Below, in pieces: positions 5,437 to 25,515 of a DNA stretch of 30,346 bases (the first letter of the stretch is position 1; each line of letters starts with the position of its first letter). The notes beneath the pieces are model-generated. The model ran no database searches. It was not told the DNA's origin and saw only the letters and a program-made list of their open reading frames with translations. Position numbers and translations under genes: made by a program. This DNA is from Gammaproteobacteria bacterium (GTDB lineage: Bacteria > Pseudomonadota > Gammaproteobacteria > Arenicellales > JAOTWM01), in contig JAOTWM010000012.1 in the NCBI GenBank assembly GCA_029862885.1, positions 1 through 30,346 of the forward strand. The letters run 5' to 3'.

Positions 5437-6060
5437 ATGCAGATACTCTATGGGGCCAAGGGCGCGGGTTCGGTTGCTCCTCAAGCCTTGCTAACCCATC
5501 TAGAAGTGCCATTCGAGCTAAAGCTGATTAGCTTTGACGCAAACGAGCACCAGTCAGAGGCATTTCTTGCCGTCAACCCCCGGGGGCAGATCCCTGTGCT
5601 GGTTTTGGACGACAAAAGCGTCCTGACTGAATCGCTTGCCATCATGCTTCATGTCGCCGACAGCCACCTGTCCTCTGCATTGATTCCAGCACCGGGCAGT
5701 GCCGAGCGAGCCCAAGTGTATCGCTGGATGTCATTTACCGCGACGAATGTGTACGAGGGGCTCTTGCGTCTTCTATACCCAGATATGTACACGACCAACA
5801 GCGACCTGTCCAAAGTCGTAGAGTCGGCTGATCAGTATTTGAATTCAGCTTTTGGAATTCTCAATCAAGCGCTAAGTAAGGGGCCATGGTTGGTTGGAGG
5901 GCGTACGGGCGTCACCGATATCTATCTTGCGATGCTGCTGACTTGGTACCCTGATCAGCAGAGGCTATACGAAGTCTACACGAATCTGCAGCCGTCCTTG
6001 AAACAGACGTTGGCGCTCGAAGGTGTGACAAGGGTGTTTGAGGAAAATGAGTTGATCTAA
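5437..6060 (+). CDS. Glutathione S-transferase family protein
   Basis: Thioredoxin-like N-domain (QIPVLVLDD...ESLAIMLHV) and a helical C-domain. Length is 207 aa. Confidence 0.8.
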   Translation: MQILYGAKGAGSVAPQALLTHLEVPFELKLISFDANEHQSEAFLAVNPRGQIPVLVLDDKSVLTESLAIMLHVADSHLSSALIPAPGSAERAQVYRWMSFTATNVYEGLLRLLYPDMYTTNSDLSKVVESADQYLNSAFGILNQALSKGPWLVGGRTGVTDIYLAMLLTWYPDQQRLYEVYTNLQPSLKQTLALEGVTRVFEENELI

Positions 6061-6259: not shown

Positions 6260-6745
6260 TTGAACTTTGGCTCAGCCTATTCGTCACCTGACGACAAAAG
6301 CTTCATCGCGAAGTATCGTGCCTGCTGCCATTGCGGCGCGGTGCGGTACGAAGTTCGCGCCGATCCGGTCGACGCCAAGATTTGTCATTGTAGCGATTGC
6401 CAGATATTGCACGGCGCGCCCATGCAGTGGGCCGCAATTTTCCACAAAGAGGATGTCAGGTTCGCAACTGGGGCTGAGCATTTGCGATTCTATAACAGCG
6501 TCCTCAACCGCCATGAAAGACTCGTGCCCTGTAAGGTGGCCTGCGCATTGTGCGGTACGCTAATCGCCGATGAAGGGCGAAATATGTGGCTGGCCTTTCC
6601 CACGCTTTTCGATTTCGGCGCGCCGCCACAGGTGCCCGAAGCGTTCAGGCCGACCTGTCACCTCTTCTACGGCATGCGGGTGATGGATATCGTCGATGAG
6701 TTGCCGAAATGGTCTGGCCACAAAGATAAATCGAGGCGACTTTGA
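6260..6745 (+). CDS. GFA-family (glutathione-dependent formaldehyde-activating / CENP-V-like) protein
   Basis: CHCGAVRYEV...CHCSDCQ...C zinc-binding pattern of the GFA domain. TTG start with an AAGGAG Shine-Dalgarno 9 nt upstream. Confidence 0.8.
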   Translation: MNFGSAYSSPDDKSFIAKYRACCHCGAVRYEVRADPVDAKICHCSDCQILHGAPMQWAAIFHKEDVRFATGAEHLRFYNSVLNRHERLVPCKVACALCGTLIADEGRNMWLAFPTLFDFGAPPQVPEAFRPTCHLFYGMRVMDIVDELPKWSGHKDKSRRL

Positions 6746-7454: not shown

Positions 7455-7871
7455 ATGAAAAAGATATATATATTAATCGTAACCGCATTTACGTTCGTAA
7501 TTGCATCTTCCGGATATACAGCTAATACCGAAGAGGAGGTATCGATGGACTCCTCATCGACTATGGAGATGAGCGAAGATATGTCGGGAATGATGGGCGG
7601 GATGCATCATAAAGGGGTGGAGCATCGGGGCATGATGGGTCATCACATGATGCATTCTGGCGTATCACCGGTAACCATCATGGTTCAACCCGGAATGATG
7701 CCGATGATGGGTCATGGCATGATGCACCGCGGAGAGAAGGGTGGTCATAAAGGGGGTGAAATGGGTCGGGGAAAAATGATGAAAGAACACATGGAACGCA
7801 TGGAGCAGCGGCTGAAAAATATCGAGGCATTGCTCAGTGAACTGGTAGAGCTGCAAAAAAAAGGCGAGTAG
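7455..7871 (+). CDS. Secreted Met/His-rich protein (PcoE/SilE-like composition) with a C-terminal coiled coil. Putative periplasmic Cu(I)/Ag(I)-binding protein.
   Basis: GGAGAAA Shine-Dalgarno 5 nt before the ATG. Signal peptide MKKIYILIVTAFTFVIASSGYTA. Mature part is dense in MxxM, HxxM and MMGHH motifs. The ORF tracker's upstream extension to 7356 only translates element A. Confidence 0.75.
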   Translation: MKKIYILIVTAFTFVIASSGYTANTEEEVSMDSSSTMEMSEDMSGMMGGMHHKGVEHRGMMGHHMMHSGVSPVTIMVQPGMMPMMGHGMMHRGEKGGHKGGEMGRGKMMKEHMERMEQRLKNIEALLSELVELQKKGE

Positions 7872-8232
7872 CCAACAGACAAGCATAAGCGGGTTTCGTT
7901 TTTGGAAGGGGCAAAACTACGATATGGGTTTTCCATAGCGTATCCGAAACTGCAAAAGGGTTTCGGCTTTAACCGAGCTGTTTATTCGGGTTTGAATCCA
8001 TGTCAGTGCTTTGGCCTTAATTTGTCAAGGTCTGAATCTGATCTTTCGATTCCGTTCGTTCAGTGCGATCTCATCTGATAGTTTGGGAAAGCGGCCATGC
8101 AACTGGTCGACCTATACGGCTGCAACTTGCCCGGAGCGGTCATTCGAGAAGATTCACTGGAGGGCGGTTCTCGGCACTTTTCGGAGGCTGGCTAGATTTG
8201 ATTGTTGGTTTCATTCGAGCGAACATCCGCTC

Positions 8233-9555
8233 ATGACTCCCGAGACTCATTTCGCTGAAAACGATGGCGTCAGCATCGCGTATCAAGTTTTCGGTGACGG
8301 CTCACAGGACCTGATATTCATACCGGGATGGTTATCGAATCTTGACATATTGTGGGAAGAGCCGAGGGTGGCTCGTTTCCTTCTGTCACTGGCGCGAATT
8401 TTTAGGGTTACTGTTATTGATAGACGCGGAACTGGGCTTTCCGATCGTGTCGCGCCCCCGACTCTAGAAGTTCAGATGGGCGATGTGACGGCGGTGATGG
8501 ATGCCGCAGGTTCCGAACGCGCAGCATTTCTCGGTAATTCCGAAGGCGGGAGTATGTGTGCGTTGTTCGCGGCGACCCATCCGGATCGAACAACGGCTCT
8601 AATTACGGTTGGTGGATATGCTAAATGGATAAAGTCTGACGATTATCCGTATGGAACGAAACCGAGTGAAGCTGAGCAGTGGTTTGAACAAGTTGAAAAC
8701 GAGTGGGGTGGTCCCATCGCAATCGACTTTATCTCACCGAGTTTGGCAAACGATGAAAAACACCGACACTGGTTGGCTAAATTTTACCGATCGAGTGCAA
8801 GCAAGGCGAACGCCATTGCAATGCTAAGAATGGGTGCGGATATTGACCTTCGAGCAATATTGCCGACCATCAATGTTCCAAGCTTGGTGCTTCAAGCCAA
8901 AGCCGACCTTACCAACTCATTGGATTCGGGTCGCGACCTCGCAAGCCGAATCCCAAATGCGAAACTTGTCGAAATGGAATGCAGAGATCACGTGCTATGG
9001 GGGGACTGCAGTGAAGTGATTATTGGTGAGATACAGAACTTTCTCGGCGAAAAACAGACGATTTCGGTCACTGATCGAGCATTAGCCACCGTATTGTTCA
9101 CTGACATAGTCGATTCAACACAACTTGCGAACGATTTGGGCGATGAAAAATGGAGCGATCTACTTGAGGGACATAATGAAGCGGTCAGAAGGCAGCTTGA
9201 AATATTCCGTGGCAACGAGGTAAAGACTACCGGTGACGGCTTTCATGCAACATTTGACGGGCCCGCTCGAGCAATCCAATGTGCAGCCTCGATACGAGAA
9301 GCGACACGTCAATTAGGTTTAAGTCTCCGAATTGGCATACATACTGGAGAATGTGAGATTCGTGGAGAATCACTTGAGGGGGTGGCGATTCACTTGGCGG
9401 CACGTGTATCAGGGATGGCTTCTGCCGGGGAAATTGTTGTGTCAAGAACAGTTAAGGACCTTGTTGCTGGGTCAGGAATTGAGTTTGAAGACTTTGGTGT
9501 TCATGCCCTTAAGGGAATCTCTGGTGAACAACAACTATTCAAGGTGGTGGCGTAG
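8233..9555 (+). CDS. Alpha/beta-hydrolase-fold domain fused to a class III adenylate/guanylate cyclase catalytic domain (LipJ/Rv1900c-type architecture).
   Basis: N-terminal half resembles alpha/beta hydrolases. C-terminal VLFTDIVDSTQLANDLGD...TTGDGFHATF...RIGIHTGE are cyclase CHD motifs. The start codon is uncertain; the frame is open back to 8011. Confidence 0.75.
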   Translation: MTPETHFAENDGVSIAYQVFGDGSQDLIFIPGWLSNLDILWEEPRVARFLLSLARIFRVTVIDRRGTGLSDRVAPPTLEVQMGDVTAVMDAAGSERAAFLGNSEGGSMCALFAATHPDRTTALITVGGYAKWIKSDDYPYGTKPSEAEQWFEQVENEWGGPIAIDFISPSLANDEKHRHWLAKFYRSSASKANAIAMLRMGADIDLRAILPTINVPSLVLQAKADLTNSLDSGRDLASRIPNAKLVEMECRDHVLWGDCSEVIIGEIQNFLGEKQTISVTDRALATVLFTDIVDSTQLANDLGDEKWSDLLEGHNEAVRRQLEIFRGNEVKTTGDGFHATFDGPARAIQCAASIREATRQLGLSLRIGIHTGECEIRGESLEGVAIHLAARVSGMASAGEIVVSRTVKDLVAGSGIEFEDFGVHALKGISGEQQLFKVVA

Positions 9556-9639: not shown

Positions 9640-10320
9640 ATGGCAACAATAAGACCCATGATCAAGGTTATCACCAACAAATACGCGTCCTCACCCTACA
9701 GTCGGAAAGGCATCATTGTGCTGGAGGAGAAGGGCCTACCCTATGAGCAGGAAAACATCGACCCGGATTTCCTGCCGGACGGGTTCGAGTCGATGAACCC
9801 CAACCTGCGGGCGTCCTTGTTGATCGATCAGGGCCAGATGATATTTGAGTCGGACAACATCGTAGACTATCTCTTGCGGACGTATCCGGGGGAGCGGTCA
9901 GCGGATGCGCCGGACCCGCCCCTGACCGAAACCATGACACGCCCGGATCACCACATCCACGATTCTATGATCCTGGTTACGATTGAAACTGTCCTGAATA
10001 GCGCGAATAACATATCATTTTTTGCCACTGGCGGAATCGACCCCGCGAAGATCGAGCCCTATGGGTGGATATGGGAACGGGACAAGGTCCGCATCGATTC
10101 CTGCATGACTTGGCTGGACCAGCCAGCAATACCCGAGGGATTTGCTCCTGGAGTTTTTTCCATCATGGATCTAAAAATGATGTGCGCGTTCCGGTGTTTA
10201 ACCCGATGCGCGAATGATGACTGGAACCCCGACTGGAGCAAATATCGAAATCTCGATTCGATTTATGCGTTTTATCGGGACCGACCCTCCATTGTGAAAA
10301 CTGACCCTGGGCTAGGATAG
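9640..10320 (+). CDS. GST N-terminal-domain (thioredoxin-like) family protein
   Basis: SPYSRKG...NPNLRASLLIDQGQMIFESDNIVDYL fits the GST_N fold. The C-terminal half is atypical. An alternative start lies at 9658. Confidence 0.6.
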   Translation: MATIRPMIKVITNKYASSPYSRKGIIVLEEKGLPYEQENIDPDFLPDGFESMNPNLRASLLIDQGQMIFESDNIVDYLLRTYPGERSADAPDPPLTETMTRPDHHIHDSMILVTIETVLNSANNISFFATGGIDPAKIEPYGWIWERDKVRIDSCMTWLDQPAIPEGFAPGVFSIMDLKMMCAFRCLTRCANDDWNPDWSKYRNLDSIYAFYRDRPSIVKTDPGLG

Positions 10321-10422
10321 TTCTGCCAGAGGGTGCGGCGGTAGTTATCGGAACACGGACATCAAGCGACTTTGGCGGGAAATGGCGATTTAAAAACCAG
10401 GGCCAATGTCCGCAACGAGTAG

Positions 10423-10589
10423 AGACTGTGTGAAAACACAAAAAATAATGAGGCTGTTGGGACAGTGCTGCTTAATCTTCATCCGCGGAGACAACTTTTG
10501 CAGTTGAAGCTCCACTTATAACGTTAGAATTTAACAAGCGTGATCGTTATCCCCACCAACAATTTTGATCCTGCGTTTTCACACAGTCT
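10423..10589. mobile_element. MITE-like element copy 1 (167 bp) with terminal inverted repeat AGACTGTGTGAAAAC and a possible GAGTA target-site duplication.
   Basis: IRs at 10423-10437 and 10575-10589. A diverged second copy with the same IRs lies at 14274-14439. Confidence 0.6.
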
Positions 10590-10725
10590 GAGTATGAAGC
10601 GGAAGTTTTCCATGATAACTCAATTGGCCGCTTTTGGGGTTTTGAGACCCTCGCGAAGGTCAAAGTTAGGGTGCTATCGGGTGCCATGCTTCGTCAGAAA
10701 ACTCCGGGGTTTCGCGCGGTGGGAA

Positions 10726-10880
10726 TCACGGCATCGGTCTGAAAAAACAGTCGTTGGCGAGAGGGGTTGGCCATATATAGGTTATAAGATCTGGAGACCT
10801 CACGGATCGACGCAACCCCCCCCCCGGTCGCAGTGCTGTAGCATGGGACCCAATTGTATTTACGCCAAGCTCAAGAACGC
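10726..10880 (+). promoter_or_regulatory. Conserved ~140-nt element, copy B. It is an orphan; no + strand gene follows within 500 bp.
   Basis: Aligns with copy A (7290-7442) over its whole length, including about 12 nt beyond the cgccaa stem. Confidence 0.45.
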
Positions 10881-11403
10881 AGAAGCAGCGACGCAGCTCA
10901 AATTAGGCCGAACTCCGCCTGTCGCGACATCGCTTTTCTAGCCCGAATAATTCATGAAAGCATCTGATTTCAGGGGAAATCGGGCCAAGTAGTCGGTGCG
11001 ATCGTTTGTCCGATTTATAGCCGCAGCTATGGATCAAGGGGGATCGTGCCAAATATGACGCCCGATTTTTCTGAGTCCGAACAGGACATACCATATGCAG
11101 GCCCCGTGTCTTAACACACACGGTAACCGGTTCAAATATTGAAAAGAGTCCTGGTCCATCGTCGGCCTTGGTGAAATATCCGGGCTAGTCAACATATCAT
11201 TGCCGGGAATTTGATTTACTTTAATTGTACGTGTCGCGAACGGGACATTGAGGTCATGCAGTGCCGGACGCTCAGGTTGCCGAACCACGGTTCCAGCAAT
11301 ACCGCTTGCGTTAAGAAATGGAACAAATCACCATTAATACGATCTCATGCATAGAGTTCATACGAAGTATCATTCCACGGCTTAACGATCAGAAAACACG
11401 ACC

Positions 11404-12292: not shown

Positions 12293-12547
12293 CTATTCGT
12301 GCGTGTTCTGGAATCGTTTTCCGATATTACGCATGAAGTTGACCATCATCAGCATGGCGACCCCCATTACGATAAGGGTGATCGCTACAAGCCATACCAG
12401 GATCTGTGGATAAATAATGATGGTCACACCTAAGATAATGAAGACAACTCCGGGAATAATCATCCAGAACCTGGAGCCCGGCTTCTTTATCATTCCCTTG
12501 CATGTCTCTGCCATCGGGCACGTCGGCATTGGTACTGTCTCTGCCAT
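12293..12547 (-). CDS. Small two-TM membrane protein with an N-terminal CPMAETC motif
   Basis: GAAGGAG Shine-Dalgarno 6 nt upstream. Two hydrophobic helices. It is the last gene of the sigma-GST-AhpD operon. Confidence 0.65.
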   Translation of the reverse strand: MAETVPMPTCPMAETCKGMIKKPGSRFWMIIPGVVFIILGVTIIIYPQILVWLVAITLIVMGVAMLMMVNFMRNIGKRFQNTHE

Positions 12548-12593
12548 TGTTTTCTCCTTCTACTTTGAGGATCTCACTTGATTTCGCTGAGGT

Positions 12594-12815
12594 TTATTTC
12601 TCTATCGCGGTCTCGCCCAGAAGCTCGCGTGCTTTTTTGCGGATGGCGTTTTCGGCGCCACGGTTCACCATCAAACCCACCTTGACCGCTGCAGCAACCT
12701 CCTCGCGGTCAATTCCCAGCTCGTCGCACTTGGCGAGGTGGTGATCCATGCACGGATGGCAGTTCGCCGCTGCCGAAGCCCCCATGGCCACAAGCTCTTT
12801 CATATGTTCATTCAC
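12594..12815 (-). CDS. Carboxymuconolactone decarboxylase / AhpD-like family protein (CxxCxxxH)
   Basis: ANCHPCMDHH matches the AhpD C-x-x-C-x3-H active-site spacing. GTG start at 12815 with GAGGAG 7 nt upstream; the tracker's TTG at 12830 lies inside the Shine-Dalgarno. Confidence 0.65.
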   Translation of the reverse strand: MNEHMKELVAMGASAAANCHPCMDHHLAKCDELGIDREEVAAAVKVGLMVNRGAENAIRKKARELLGETAIEK

Positions 12816-12869
12816 TTTTGTTCTCCTCAATGATTGTCCGATTCAAACTTTGCTTAGTTCACACACTCT

Positions 12870-13583
12870 TTAACAGCAAGCGCAAGCGACCGATCGCTCG
12901 GTCGGACCGCAGCACGCCTGTCGAGCTTGGCCTTGCTCCGGGTGACCCAGGTAGGTCTCGTCGGACAGGTAGAAGTTGGTGAACTTCTCCACAAAATCTT
13001 CTGCGACGGATTTCTTCGGCAGACCTGTGGCGAGTACATTCTGCTGCCACGCTTTGACCTTCGGGAACTCGGCCAAGAAGTCATAACCAGAGTGCTGCTG
13101 AATGATGGCCGCACGGTGCAGCAACGGCAACCATGCAATATCAACCATGCCAACCTTATCCCCCCTGAAGAATCGACCGTCACTCAGTCTCTTTTCGGCG
13201 GTTGCGAATGCCTCATTCAGCTTGGCGCTGCGCTCCACAAACGTGACTTGATCGGGGCTCCTCTGCGTCGAGCACTGGACAAGGTAGTTCTTTGTGGCCA
13301 GGTATGACCACGCCCGCTCTCGAGCCTTCTCGACGGGATCAGCAGGGAACAGCGGATCTCCGGCAGTCTCCTCGATGTACTCTACGATGGCATCGGATTC
13401 GTGAAGCGCGCGACCATCGTCGGTTATCAGGACCGGTACCTGGCCCAGCGGTGATATCTCAAGGAACCAATCGGGCTTGTCGCTGATATCGATATCCTCG
13501 ACCTCGTAGGGGACGTTCTTGGCCTCAAGCAGGGCCGTGATCCGCTGGACGAAAGGGCAAATTCCAGAGCTGACGATTTTCAT
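12870..13583 (-). CDS. Glutathione S-transferase (CPF, Grx-like type) with a Cys-rich C-terminal tail ...QACCGPTERSVACACC
   Basis: AGGAG Shine-Dalgarno 7 nt upstream. N-terminal ICPFVQR...GQVPVL...ESDAIVEYI GST_N fold. Six cysteines lie in the last 16 residues. Confidence 0.8.
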   Translation of the reverse strand: MKIVSSGICPFVQRITALLEAKNVPYEVEDIDISDKPDWFLEISPLGQVPVLITDDGRALHESDAIVEYIEETAGDPLFPADPVEKARERAWSYLATKNYLVQCSTQRSPDQVTFVERSAKLNEAFATAEKRLSDGRFFRGDKVGMVDIAWLPLLHRAAIIQQHSGYDFLAEFPKVKAWQQNVLATGLPKKSVAEDFVEKFTNFYLSDETYLGHPEQGQARQACCGPTERSVACACC

Positions 13584-13646
13584 TCGGGATCTCCTGTTAG
13601 TCTCTACTAAGGGAGACGCGAGATACCTGAAAAAGACGCAGACTCG

Positions 13647-14204
13647 TCAGCAGCAGTCGTCGTCCTTGAGTTCGTAGGCGCTCAGGTTGCCCCTCGCATC
13701 AATCTCCAGGGCACAACACCTCTGATAGAGCTCTCTAAGCATTGCCCGACCCCGCTGGACGCGGGACTTCGCTGCTGAGTGACTTAATCCCAGTCTATCC
13801 GCCAATTCTGTCTGCGGCACATCATCAAGATCGACGGCCTGCACGGCGTCCCGGTACTTCTCGGGGAGCTGCGAAATGAAGGGCCGGATACAGTTACCCA
13901 GCTCCTGTCGGACCTCCTCGTATGCTTCCACATCGTCCTCGGGGGCCAGCAGGATATCGGGTAATGATGCCTCCGGTCGCGCTCGACGGTAGTAGTCATT
14001 CAGGGTGTTCCGGGCCACTTGGTATAACCAGGGACGGAACTTCGATGGCTCCCGAACATCGTTGATGTGCTGGTGGGACTTGATCAACACCTCCTGAACC
14101 AGGTCATCAACATCCGCGCCACGCGGTAACCGGGCATTGAGGAACTGCTTGATCCCTTGCCCGTATTCCGACCATATCGTTGCGACATCAGTTGTTGAGC
14201 CCAT
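13647..14204 (-). CDS. ECF (sigma-70 family) sigma factor with a C-terminal Cys-rich extension (CC-x19-CC), CorE/ECF44-like
   Basis: Region 2 (DLVQEVLIKSHQ...FRPWLYQVARNTLNDYYRR) and region 4 (ELADRLGLSHSAAKSRVQRGRAMLRE) are present. Tail QRCCALEIDARGNLSAYELKDDDCC. The tracker's ORF extends to 14465 but would read through the MITE, so the ATG at 14204 is chosen. Confidence 0.8.
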   Translation of the reverse strand: MGSTTDVATIWSEYGQGIKQFLNARLPRGADVDDLVQEVLIKSHQHINDVREPSKFRPWLYQVARNTLNDYYRRARPEASLPDILLAPEDDVEAYEEVRQELGNCIRPFISQLPEKYRDAVQAVDLDDVPQTELADRLGLSHSAAKSRVQRGRAMLRELYQRCCALEIDARGNLSAYELKDDDCC

Positions 14205-14273
14205 AATCCAATTTTCATCCCGCATGCATCTTGCTGTAAAGCGAGAAATCGGGTGCGGTAAACGTCCGCTCTG

Positions 14274-22130: not shown

Positions 22131-22204
22131 AGCGAGATAGCTCAGCTAGGTAGAGCAACCGACTCATAATCGGTCCGTCGCAGGTTCAACTCCTGCTCTC
22201 AATT
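22131..22204 (+). tRNA. tRNA-Met(CAT)-like sequence. The D, anticodon and T arms are canonical, but the 3' acceptor strand pairs at only 5 of 7 positions. Probable pseudo-tRNA or att-site-modified tRNA.
   Basis: TAGCTCAGCTAGGTAGAGC D-arm. Anticodon stem ACCGA/TCGGT with loop CTCATAA. T-arm GCAGG TTCAACT CCTGC. Acceptor 5' AGCGAGA versus 3' TCTCAAT, with no encoded CCA. Confidence 0.55.
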
Positions 22205-24858: not shown

Positions 24859-25515
24859 TTAAAGTTGCCGGCCGAGCCACCCGTCGCGCTGTTTAGTGGA
24901 TTTGCGATACAGCGCGGTAAATTCGGAGTCTATGGCCTGCTTGACTGCACCTAACCGCAACACGGCACTACTCCATGCGTCCAATTTCGGGTGGTCGCCA
25001 GGGTCTAAGAGCTGTCGTGCGGGTTTGAGAATGTCGAGCCGCGCAAATAAAGGTGCGAAGCACGCATCGACGAGGCCGGGTTCGGGTCCGTCGAAAAACA
25101 CGGCATCCGATTTTTTGTCCTCGAGGTAGTCAAACTTCTCGTCGAGATCGTACGCGGCGTCGTCGAACTCGGATTCGTCCGTTGCTGTAACGGCCCCAGA
25201 CAGATCCGCCAATACCGCCGCGCCGTACGCAATCATTGCTCGATGTCTGGCTCGTTGTAGCGGCTCCTCGGGCAATAGCGAATCCGACGCGATGTCGTTC
25301 AGGTACTCGTTGATGACTGCAGATTCAAAAACAATATGCTGGTCATCTATGCGCAGGATCGGGACCCGACCAAGCGGCGACACGTCCTCGAACCAGGGCG
25401 GTGGGTTAGTGATATCGATTATGGTTAGGCGATACGCAATGTCCTTAAGTCGCAACACGACTTCCGATGACTGCACGAACGGACAGAGCGCGATGCTGAT
25501 TAATTCCAAGTCCAT
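24859..25515 (-). CDS. Glutathione S-transferase (CPF, Grx-like type)
   Basis: N-terminal LCPFVQSSEVVL...GRVPIL...ESAVINEYL GST_N fold. Lies 35 bp downstream of the AAA gene on the same strand. Confidence 0.8.
   Translation of the reverse strand: MDLELISIALCPFVQSSEVVLRLKDIAYRLTIIDITNPPPWFEDVSPLGRVPILRIDDQHIVFESAVINEYLNDIASDSLLPEEPLQRARHRAMIAYGAAVLADLSGAVTATDESEFDDAAYDLDEKFDYLEDKKSDAVFFDGPEPGLVDACFAPLFARLDILKPARQLLDPGDHPKLDAWSSAVLRLGAVKQAIDSEFTALYRKSTKQRDGWLGRQL

Follow-up and report, generated by a model that had tools for sequence, protein, structure and literature searches.

The 30-kb window (the whole stretch of DNA analysed, 30,346 nt) carries four co-directional genes on its minus strand, as the initial annotation had described. 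The first encodes a SigZ-family ECF sigma factor (13647–14204, 185 aa) and is followed by genes for an Omega/TDR1-like Cys-GST (12870–13583, 237 aa), an AhpD/CMD-like thiol protein (12594–12815, 73 aa, GTG start) and a two-TM hairpin membrane protein (12293–12547, 84 aa), with intergenic gaps of 63, 54 and 46 nt. Each gene had been credited with its own Shine-Dalgarno sequence. AGGAG-type ribosome-binding sites are indeed clear before the GST, AhpD-like and TM genes, but only a weak site precedes the sigma ATG at 14204. An alternative sigma ATG is located at 14225, and the ORF listing contains an alternative TTG start at 12830 for the AhpD-like gene. An ECF-type promoter, CGTCTTTTTCAGGTATCTCGCGTCT, lies within the sigma–GST spacer (13614–13638, minus strand). 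Upstream of the sigma gene, a 58-nt block (14212–14269, minus strand) is identical at 55 of 58 nt to a Woeseia locus (L004) and is the sole conserved stretch in a spacer that has otherwise diverged. This block loosely resembles the SigZ motif (CGTTTA...CGCTTTA) and, as a candidate, probably represents the promoter and 5' leader of the sigma gene. The window contains no arsR, acr3, arsB or arsC gene, and no cluster combining arsR with acr3/arsB and/or arsC, as expected of an ars operon, is present in it. The only Rfam match in the window is a tRNA at 22131–22204, the two long spacers being empty in this search. A Met/His-rich secreted protein is encoded at 7455–7871.

The sigma factor contains detectable Sigma70_r2 and Sigma70_r4_2 domains. 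It scores 186.7 bits against the NCBIfam SigZ model TIGR02959 (cutoff 168.65) and 197.5 bits against the SigZ equivalog NF007215, under the cutoff of 212 that a homologue from another locus (L179) passes at 232.3. Its cysteines are C105 in the linker and C163, C164, C184 and C185 near the C-terminus (...QRCCALEIDARGNLSAYELKDDDCC), the last four forming a Cys-rich CC-x19-CC hairpin within 23 residues. The CC directly after region 4 is kept in all 120 SigZ homologues (and is invariant in alignment A1), while a second CxxC, CC or CxC is present in 109 of them. In the AF2 model (pLDDT 83.9), two strands (164–168 and 174–179) follow the last sigma-4 helix; a Foldseek search with this model returned generic ECF sigma structures only, with the Cys hairpin in no solved structure. 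No anti-sigma candidate or membrane gene is conserved next to SigZ among the 32 loci examined, in agreement with the earlier description of a Cys-tailed ECF sigma factor without an adjacent anti-sigma gene.

In the 2021 re-classification of ECF sigma factors, B. subtilis SigZ is assigned to ECF238 together with CorE2 (PMC7826278). We judged the placement of the window protein on the described features of this group (Casas-Pastor 2021), a Cys extension of ~20 aa and the lack of an anti-sigma gene; a 23-residue Cys extension is present, and no anti-sigma gene is found nearby. A CorE-like, ECF44 identity had been proposed previously. CorE and CorE2 of Myxococcus xanthus (formerly ECF44, with CorE2 now in ECF238) resemble SigZ in being ECF sigma factors without an anti-sigma factor, in having a short C-terminal Cys-rich extension taken as the sensor, and in controlling a small adjacent regulon. 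However, a CxC in the sigma2–sigma4 linker is essential in CorE/CorE2 (PMC4937300; also part of the definition in PMC8999054), and the CorE-like Cys-rich domain holds six cysteines in 28–38 residues (PMC4937300). The linker CxC is absent from the window sigma factor, which has the single C105, and from all 120 SigZ homologues, about half of which have a single linker cysteine; the SigZ extension contains four cysteines (CC...CC or CC...CxxC). The promoter and targets also differ, and the gene context of SigZ is arsenic, not Cu/Cd/Zn. By these features the protein is a SigZ-family ECF sigma factor that belongs within ECF238 but outside the CorE branch, and the ECF44 assignment is not sustained. 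ECF238, an ECF group without a known signal, consists mostly of SigZ-like proteins. B. subtilis SigZ (TIGR02959/NF007215; ECF238 subgroup 9) shares with the window protein the TIGR02959 family, a CC...C tail and the lack of an anti-sigma factor, whereas the window protein falls under the NF007215 cutoff. To our knowledge, B. subtilis SigZ has remained an orphan for decades, with no known signal, regulon or arsenic role, and therefore provides no basis for a functional assignment of the window protein.

The GST has a catalytic cysteine (C9) within ICPFVQR, a conserved C104, and the C-terminus QACCGPTERSVACACC, of which the tail CCGPTERSVACACC bears five cysteines. The domains PF13409, PF13417, PF13410 and PF00043 (GST_N and GST_C) all score above cutoff and, with the catalytic cysteine in the CPF motif, identify an Omega-type Cys-GST. 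The terminal CC and CPFVQR are invariant in alignment A2, and of the 120 best GST homologues (58–97% identity) about 110 have the CC...C...CC tail. The Cys tails of both proteins are thus carried by their orthologs and do not reflect a frameshift artefact. A relative of the GST is found in the genomes of 392 species, among them sponge symbionts, roseobacters and cyanobacteria. For the window GST, the nearest solved structures are 4ags (Leishmania TDR1) and 1eem (human GSTO1), which have the same CPF cysteine and GST N- and C-domains but lack a poly-cysteine C-terminal tail. Among GST-fold enzymes, TDR1 and GSTO1 are the ones known for the reduction of pentavalent antimonials and of methylarsonate. 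Compared to these enzymes, the bacterial origin and the control by a sigma factor or ArsR are new, and a thiol-transferase, dehydroascorbate-reductase or MMA(V)-reductase activity of the Omega type is putative here. In the C-terminal CC tail of MerA and in the ArsD metallochaperone, a mobile segment with vicinal cysteine pairs binds a soft metal or metalloid, which is then passed to an active site or pump; the Cys tails of the window have no sequence relationship to either and could be functional analogues at most. The literature searched yielded nothing relevant on Cys-tailed bacterial GSTs. A role of the GST as an anti-sigma factor of SigZ was considered and rejected.

To find related loci, genomes were scanned with the GST alignment as query, and 80 GST genome loci were inspected. 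The promoter in the window, which begins 55 nt upstream of the GST start codon, consists of a -35 element (CGTCTTT) and a -10 element (CGTCT) separated by 13 nt. It is the sole match in the window, where 0.10 would be expected by chance (≤1 mismatch). The motif is located at -52 to -67 before the GST gene in 26 of 26 SigZ-linked GST loci, which span Gamma- and Alphaproteobacteria, Cyanobacteria and Myxococcota, and it precedes the GST regardless of gene order (sigma→GST or GST→sigma). Of the 26 matches to a strict version of the motif in 1.8 Mb, 24 occupy this position upstream of the GST. Other SigZ loci have the motif before ArsI/CadI, a metallothionein-like ORF or a sigZ–ArsM pair, and it is invariant in an alignment (A5) of the sequences preceding GST, ArsI/CadI and metallothionein-like genes. 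Given the conserved position in all 26 SigZ-linked GST loci and the single match in the window, the sigma factor appears to adjoin its own target promoter, which would drive the GST and two small thiol proteins. Co-occurrence of Cys-tailed GSTs with an ECF sigma factor, proposed earlier as a check for ECF44, is seen in 26 loci with SigZ as the partner. A promoter shared with the Met/His-rich gene at 7455 had also been suggested, but no SigZ-type promoter is present upstream of that gene.

The remaining two genes have a different distribution. The CHPCMDHH sequence noted earlier in the AhpD-like protein fits the CxxCxxxH motif of the CMD domain (C19, C22, H26). This protein scores 38.4 bits against PF02627 (cutoff 23) and 25.9 against TIGR00778, marginally below the cutoff of 27.8; its best NCBIfam matches are the AhpD domains of selenoprotein families, and its PDB relatives are 1vke and 1p8c. 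The TM protein contains the motif MPTCPMAETCKGM, with an N-terminal CPMAETCKGM, predicted to be cytoplasmic by the positive-inside rule, followed by two TM helices. It matches no Pfam or NCBIfam family above threshold and belongs to an unnamed family of 209 cluster representatives (E≤0.001) with an invariant CPMAxxCxG (C10, P11, M12, A13, C16 and G18). In 40 of 94 loci the AhpD-like gene immediately precedes the TM gene, and the AhpD–TM cassette is accompanied by OsmC in 28 loci; no SigZ promoter was found in the 94 TM-cassette loci scanned. Among the 80 GST loci, searched also with a family HMM, AhpD–TM is joined to SigZ–GST only in the window lineage and the Woeseia MAG (L004). SigZ–GST is thus one widespread module and AhpD–TM a separate cassette, contrary to the initial view of the four genes as one unit. 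The association of AhpD–TM with OsmC elsewhere, without a SigZ promoter, suggests a role in peroxide or thiol redox rather than arsenic. A cassette of OsmC, a 53-aa peptide, the AhpD-like protein and the CPMAxxC membrane protein, also unnamed, is abundant in sediment.

The gene context of the relatives points to arsenic. Six sigma-side SigZ loci were sampled, picked for long contigs and not for their neighbours, and all six have arsenic-related neighbours. The gene orders are arsR-acr3-arsC-sigZ-[motif]-ArsI/CadI (L179), sigZ-[motif]-ArsI/CadI (L178), [motif]-ArsI/CadI-sigZ (L183), arsC-acr3-...-[motif]-sigZ-ArsM (L181) and arsR-arsD-arsA-arsC-sigZ (L185), while L184 combines a methyltransferase with [motif]-metallothionein-like ORF-sigZ. 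The ars-type calls are above NCBIfam cutoffs, except for arsC of L181 and L185 and for the methyltransferase of L184, whose best match, below cutoff, is ArsM. Thus acr3, arsC, arsA, arsD and ArsM recur next to SigZ. In L179, L181 and L185, sigZ closes a series of ars genes, and in two of these loci arsR comes before it. Among the loci examined, SigZ has no neighbouring gene for Cu, Zn or Cd efflux, nor for any P-type ATPase, CDF, RND or multicopper oxidase. The comparative context favours arsenic over the Cu or Cd/Zn signal proposed initially. The literature searched contained nothing relevant linking SigZ or any ECF sigma factor with arsenic.

The GST has arsenic-related partners of its own. 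In about 16 loci, from ~16 genomes, a gene of this GST subfamily stands divergently to one for an ArsR regulator, which takes the position of the sigma factor. The best solved relative of this regulator is AfArsR of Acidithiobacillus ferrooxidans (6J05, E=6e-11), an As(III) repressor, with an alignment that spans the CC...C arsenite site. AfArsR resembles SigZ in that the sensing cluster is C-terminal and opens with a vicinal CC, but it is a winged-helix repressor whose mode of action is derepression, not activation. ACR3 (375.9 bits, cutoff 282.8) comes after the GST gene in 16 Binatia loci, an adjacency confined to this single lineage. Co-transcription of the Binatia pair is not established, as a conserved ~160-bp spacer without the SigZ motif separates the two genes and may hold a separate promoter.

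On balance, we lean towards a one-component SigZ sigma factor, responsive to arsenic or another metalloid, that would drive the GST–AhpD–membrane-protein operon, a reading to which we give slightly better than even credence. Without an anti-sigma factor, SigZ would sense a thiol-seeking metalloid through the CC...CC cluster and the linker cysteine, the most probable ligand being trivalent arsenic (arsenite or methylarsenite). The active sigma factor would then transcribe from CGTCTTT-N13-CGTCT the genes for the Cys-tailed GST, the AhpD-like CxxC protein and the membrane-anchored CPMAxxC peptide. The GST might act on arsenicals together with glutathione, reducing the pentavalent species or else trapping and conjugating the trivalent ones at its tail, and the AhpD-like and membrane proteins could give thiol-redox support at the membrane. 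The arsenic reading draws on the ars neighbours of the six SigZ loci, on the AfArsR-type and ACR3 partners of the GST, and on TDR1 and GSTO1 as the nearest structures. Direct sensing is supported by the precedent of CorE and CorE2, in which metals activate through the C-terminal Cys-rich domain (PMC4937300). The conserved promoter before the GST links the sigma factor to its target. Counting against the arsenic reading are the lack of arsR, acr3, arsB and arsC in the window, the Cd-linked members of the ArsI/CadI family, the small sample of six sigma-side loci, the single-lineage origin of the GST–ACR3 pair, the company of OsmC that AhpD–TM keeps elsewhere, and the absence of a known arsenic role for B. 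subtilis SigZ. The earlier proposal of a sensing and detoxification module is upheld to this extent, as the genes do form one.

The alternative that survives best retains the arsenic link but not the sensing role: the Cys cluster would be a structural zinc ribbon, control would be exerted on sigma synthesis (e.g. by ArsR-type repressors or another promoter), and the sigma factor would merely amplify one effector gene. We regard this as unlikely, though it accounts for several observations. The placement of sigZ after an ars operon, in the same orientation, in L179, L181 and L185 means that arsenic control could act on the synthesis of the sigma factor and not on the protein. In the model, the two Cys pairs bracket a beta-hairpin in a layout that would also fit a zinc ribbon, and the 58-nt block ahead of the window's sigma gene suggests that this gene is under a transcriptional control of its own. 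However, no ArsR is adjacent in the window or in most SigZ–GST loci. Where the order is GST→sigma, sigma synthesis depends on its own promoter, and some post-translational switch would be needed. Furthermore, a few homologues lack the second Cys pair, which would be odd for a structural site, and the Cys-rich domain of CorE2 is a proven sensor (PMC4937300).

A sensor of Cu or Cd/Zn of the CorE/CorE2 type, controlling metal detoxification, is improbable. The shared ECF238 assignment with CorE2 is consistent with it, as are the metallothionein-like ORF behind the motif in L184, the Met/Cys motif of the TM protein and the Met/His-rich secreted protein of the window; the ArsI/CadI family includes Cd-linked members, and its presence next to SigZ could reflect Cd. 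These points are countered by the number and spacing of the cysteines, the missing ECF44-defining linker CxC, the recurrence of ars genes in place of metal efflux systems in the loci examined, and the lack of a SigZ-type promoter before the Met/His-rich gene.

We consider it equally doubtful that SigZ senses thiol oxidation or electrophiles, with vicinal cysteines that become oxidised or alkylated to activate the sigma factor under disulfide stress, and with the GST, AhpD-like protein and TM peptide repairing thiols or removing peroxides and electrophiles. All three effectors are thiol-redox proteins, and Omega-type GSTs are generally known as thiol transferases. The OsmC-linked AhpD–TM cassettes point in the same direction, as do a SigZ-type promoter before a PatB-type C-S lyase gene (L060) and the occurrence of this lyase gene after the GST in PadR-type loci. 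Yet such a sensor would not explain why SigZ is found repeatedly within ars operons, nor why an AfArsR-type arsenite repressor replaces the sigma factor before the same GST. Finally, the CPMAxxC protein is most improbable as an unrecognised anti-sigma factor of SigZ and was rejected as such: its small size, its membrane location, its predicted cytoplasmic Cys motif and its place in the operon would fit such a role, and a family member follows directly behind an ECF sigma gene in L094, but it is not co-conserved with SigZ (missing from 24 of 26 SigZ–GST loci and from all six sigma-side loci, and present in about 90 loci without SigZ), and its ~27-residue cytoplasmic N-terminus, with CPMAETC and no histidine, lacks the HxxxCxxC motif of zinc anti-sigma factors, whose anti-sigma domain has about 50–90 residues.

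Returning to the arsenic-responsive SigZ, a broader proposal can be made more tentatively, with somewhat less than even confidence. SigZ-type ECF238 proteins may be the first sigma factors to sense arsenic directly, with trivalent arsenic, bound on the CC...CxxC/CC hairpin, activating one neighbouring detoxification gene through a fixed promoter; the Cys-tailed Omega-like GST may represent a new enzyme of arsenic resistance that can be exchanged for ArsI or ArsM; and the AhpD-like–CPMAxxC pair may constitute an unnamed membrane-tethered thiol relay. With a conserved promoter, a defined target and a specific candidate ligand at hand, the question of the SigZ signal becomes testable. If the proposal is correct, sigma factors would stand beside ArsR-type repressors as arsenic sensors, and the marine GST subfamily, widespread with relatives in 392 species genomes, would be added to the catalogue of arsenic-resistance genes used for metagenome annotation.

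The four genes lie on the minus strand at 12293-14204, as first annotated. They encode a sigma factor (13647-14204, 185 aa, with cysteines C105, C163, C164, C184 and C185), a GST (12870-13583, 237 aa, active site ICPFVQR, tail QACCGPTERSVACACC), an AhpD/CMD-like protein (12594-12815, 73 aa, GTG start, CHPCMDHH) and a two-TM protein (12293-12547, 84 aa, containing MPTCPMAETCKGM), separated in that order by 63, 54 and 46 nt. A separate Shine-Dalgarno had been proposed for each gene; good AGGAG-type sites precede the GST, AhpD-like and TM genes, and that of the sigma gene is weak. Since no terminator-like site was found between the GST, AhpD-like and TM genes, these three are probably transcribed together. 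The nearest named relative of this marine-sediment metagenome contig is a Woeseia MAG. Upstream of the sigma gene, a conserved 58-nt block (14212-14269, minus strand) matches the Woeseia MAG at 55 positions, the spacer outside the block has diverged, and the block resembles the SigZ-type promoter described below only loosely.

The sigma factor passes the NCBIfam SigZ model TIGR02959 (186.7 bits, cutoff 168.65) and fails the stricter NF007215 (197.5 bits, cutoff 212). In the ECF re-classification of 2021, SigZ is included in group ECF238, which merges the former ECF24 with the CorE group ECF44 (PMC7826278). Two features define CorE-like proteins, a domain with six cysteines and a CxC in the linker that is essential (PMC4937300); a later review finds no CxC in ∼85% of ECF238 (PMC8999054). 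In outline the protein resembles CorE as a one-component ECF factor with a Cys-rich sensor; however, its linker contains a single cysteine, and a linker CxC is absent from all 120 homologues listed, so the CorE-type (ECF44) assignment of the initial annotation does not hold. In the AlphaFold2 model (pLDDT 83.9), Cys pairs flank both ends of a β-hairpin following the last sigma-4 helix, a feature that no solved structure covers and that could be a structural zinc site.

The Cys tails are genuine family features. Among the 120 sigma homologues listed, CC immediately past region 4 is invariant, followed by CxxC in 90, CC in 13 or CxC in 6. The GST subfamily, with relatives encoded in 392 species genomes, is tight (mean column identity 70%); its alignment shows no variation in CPFVQR, at C104 or in the terminal CC, and the CC...C...CC tail is present in ∼110 of the 120 best homologues. 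This recurrence excludes a frameshift artefact. The TM protein family (209 cluster representatives) has a CPMAxxCxG, invariant in its alignment, followed by two helices.

An ECF-like motif was first spotted upstream of the GST in loci with the order GST-sigma and was then used as a search pattern. It lies 52-67 bp upstream of the GST start in 26/26 SigZ-linked loci, in either gene order. Of the 26 matches to the strict form, CGTCTTT-N12-15-CGTCT, in 1.8 Mb, 24 fall at this position. The copy at 13614-13638, within the sigma-GST spacer, is the only match in the window, where 0.10 would be expected by chance. At a constant spacing, the motif is also found ahead of ArsI/CadI genes and of a metallothionein-like ORF at other SigZ loci, and Binatia genomes without an adjacent sigma gene have a variant of it upstream of the GST. 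The secreted Met/His-rich protein at 7455-7871 (MKKIY..., MMGHHMMH-type repeats, no Pfam match) had been grouped with the operon, a shared promoter motif being suggested as a check; no SigZ-type promoter lies upstream of its gene, and the link is unsupported.

Several loci of relatives carry further genes near such promoters. At L184:3246-3420, a SigZ-type promoter and a 47-aa metallothionein-like ORF (CECDNCRCGENTCDKCIVECTCTGCECG) lie directly upstream of the SigZ gene. L060 has a second SigZ-type promoter ahead of a PatB-family C-S lyase (TIGR04350, 343.9 bits against 340), and in Roseobacter loci with a Cys-rich PadR regulator in place of SigZ such a lyase lies downstream of the GST (L060:7709-8947; also L044, L056, L062, L065 and L079).

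Across 80 genome loci surveyed from the GST side, the GST adjoins a SigZ gene in 26, a PadR regulator with CC and CxCxxC motifs in 5, and a divergent ArsR-type regulator ending in LNDCCxxHPDIxACC..CC in ∼16. The best solved relative of the latter is the arsenite repressor AfArsR (6J05), with an alignment spanning its CC...C arsenite site. In 16 Binatia loci, all from one lineage, the gene downstream of the GST encodes an ACR3 arsenite pump. Among solved structures, the GST itself is closest to Leishmania TDR1 and human GSTO1, enzymes of the GST fold that act as reductases on pentavalent antimonials and on methylarsonate. Six SigZ homologues, selected solely for long contigs, gave the arrangements arsR-acr3-arsC-sigZ-ArsI/CadI (L179), sigZ-ArsI/CadI (L178), ArsI/CadI-sigZ (L183), arsC-acr3-sigZ-ArsM (L181), arsR-arsD-arsA-arsC-sigZ (L185), and an ArsM-like methyltransferase (under cutoff) with a metallothionein-like ORF and sigZ (L184).

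By analogy with CorE2, trivalent arsenic would bind the sigma cysteines and render the factor competent, and the holoenzyme would initiate at the promoter present at 13614-13638. The GST would then handle arsenicals with glutathione, its tail capturing the trivalent product or substrate; capture or conjugation is slightly favored over reduction, because trivalent species would be the targets of ArsI, ArsM and a metallothionein alike. The weak part of this proposal is that the AhpD-like protein, together with the membrane peptide (predicted N-in, C-in), would lend thiol-redox support at the membrane.

Several points limit the arsenic reading: genes for an ars pump or reductase are absent from the window, the ArsI/CadI family includes Cd-linked proteins, and the conserved GST-ACR3 spacer may have its own promoter. 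Four other readings are therefore retained. An arsenic-linked module whose sensor is not the sigma factor is unlikely; in its favor, sigZ in three loci could be under arsenic control through the upstream ars operon, and the sigma hairpin may hold structural zinc. Sensing of Cu, Cd or Zn by the sigma factor, as first annotated, is improbable given the ars neighborhoods and the missing linker CxC. Equally improbable is thiol or electrophile stress as the signal, for which the AhpD-TM pair is relevant. In ∼90-94 marine-sediment contigs (L084-L177) this pair belongs to a separate cassette without a SigZ promoter, in which OsmC, a 53-aa Cys/His membrane peptide (CHYxFGCDH), the AhpD-like protein of 73 aa and the two-TM CPMAxxC protein occur in shuffled order, in some cases with the Cys-tailed GST as well (for example L095:2974-4240, L100:439-1719, L111:1152-2344). 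The two-TM gene almost always comes last or immediately ahead of the GST. This context suggests a role of the pair in general thiol or peroxide chemistry. That the TM protein, co-directional with the sigma gene here, is an anti-sigma factor is very unlikely in view of this separate cassette.

The 53-aa peptide and the CPMAxxC protein belong to families without a name. At L094:1463-1864, an AhpD-like gene that neighbors genes for an ECF sigma factor and a TM-family protein contains an in-frame TGA and reads ...GCHY-U-LEVH, a selenocysteine CxxUxxxH form of the CxxCxxxH in the window protein. A bufferin-type RiPP locus (BufA1, MbnB/TglH-like, HvfC) with an ECF sigma-NrsF pair (L084:1-1371) lies ∼2.7 kb from a TM-GST pair, a copper-related neighborhood that is possibly coincidental.

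Elsewhere in the window, three more GST genes and a glutathione-dependent formaldehyde-activating (GFA) gene (5437-6060, 6260-6745, 9640-10320, 24859-25515) give an unusual density of glutathione enzymes for 30 kb. An α/β hydrolase-adenylate/guanylate cyclase domain fusion is encoded at 8011-9555; in the related contigs L087-L089, a cyclase and the same dioxygenase as in the window are also found downstream of the TM gene. A stretch of ∼1.08 kb (10321-11403), flanked by a GST gene and the gene of the intradiol dioxygenase, lacks any credible ORF and has no match in Rfam. An IS21-family element occupies 400-2747; it encodes an IstB-like ATPase at 400-1155 and, at 1173-2747, a transposase carrying rve and Mu-transposase C-terminal domains.

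The components of the module are members of known families. In the literature searched, we found no account that ties SigZ-type sigma factors to arsenic, and none that describes the CGTCTTT-N12-15-CGTCT promoter, the GST subfamily with Cys tails or the CPMAxxC protein family. Effectors behind the SigZ promoter differ among loci (GST, ArsI, ArsM or a metallothionein-like protein); the constant theme is a thiol-seeking metalloid, chiefly arsenic.
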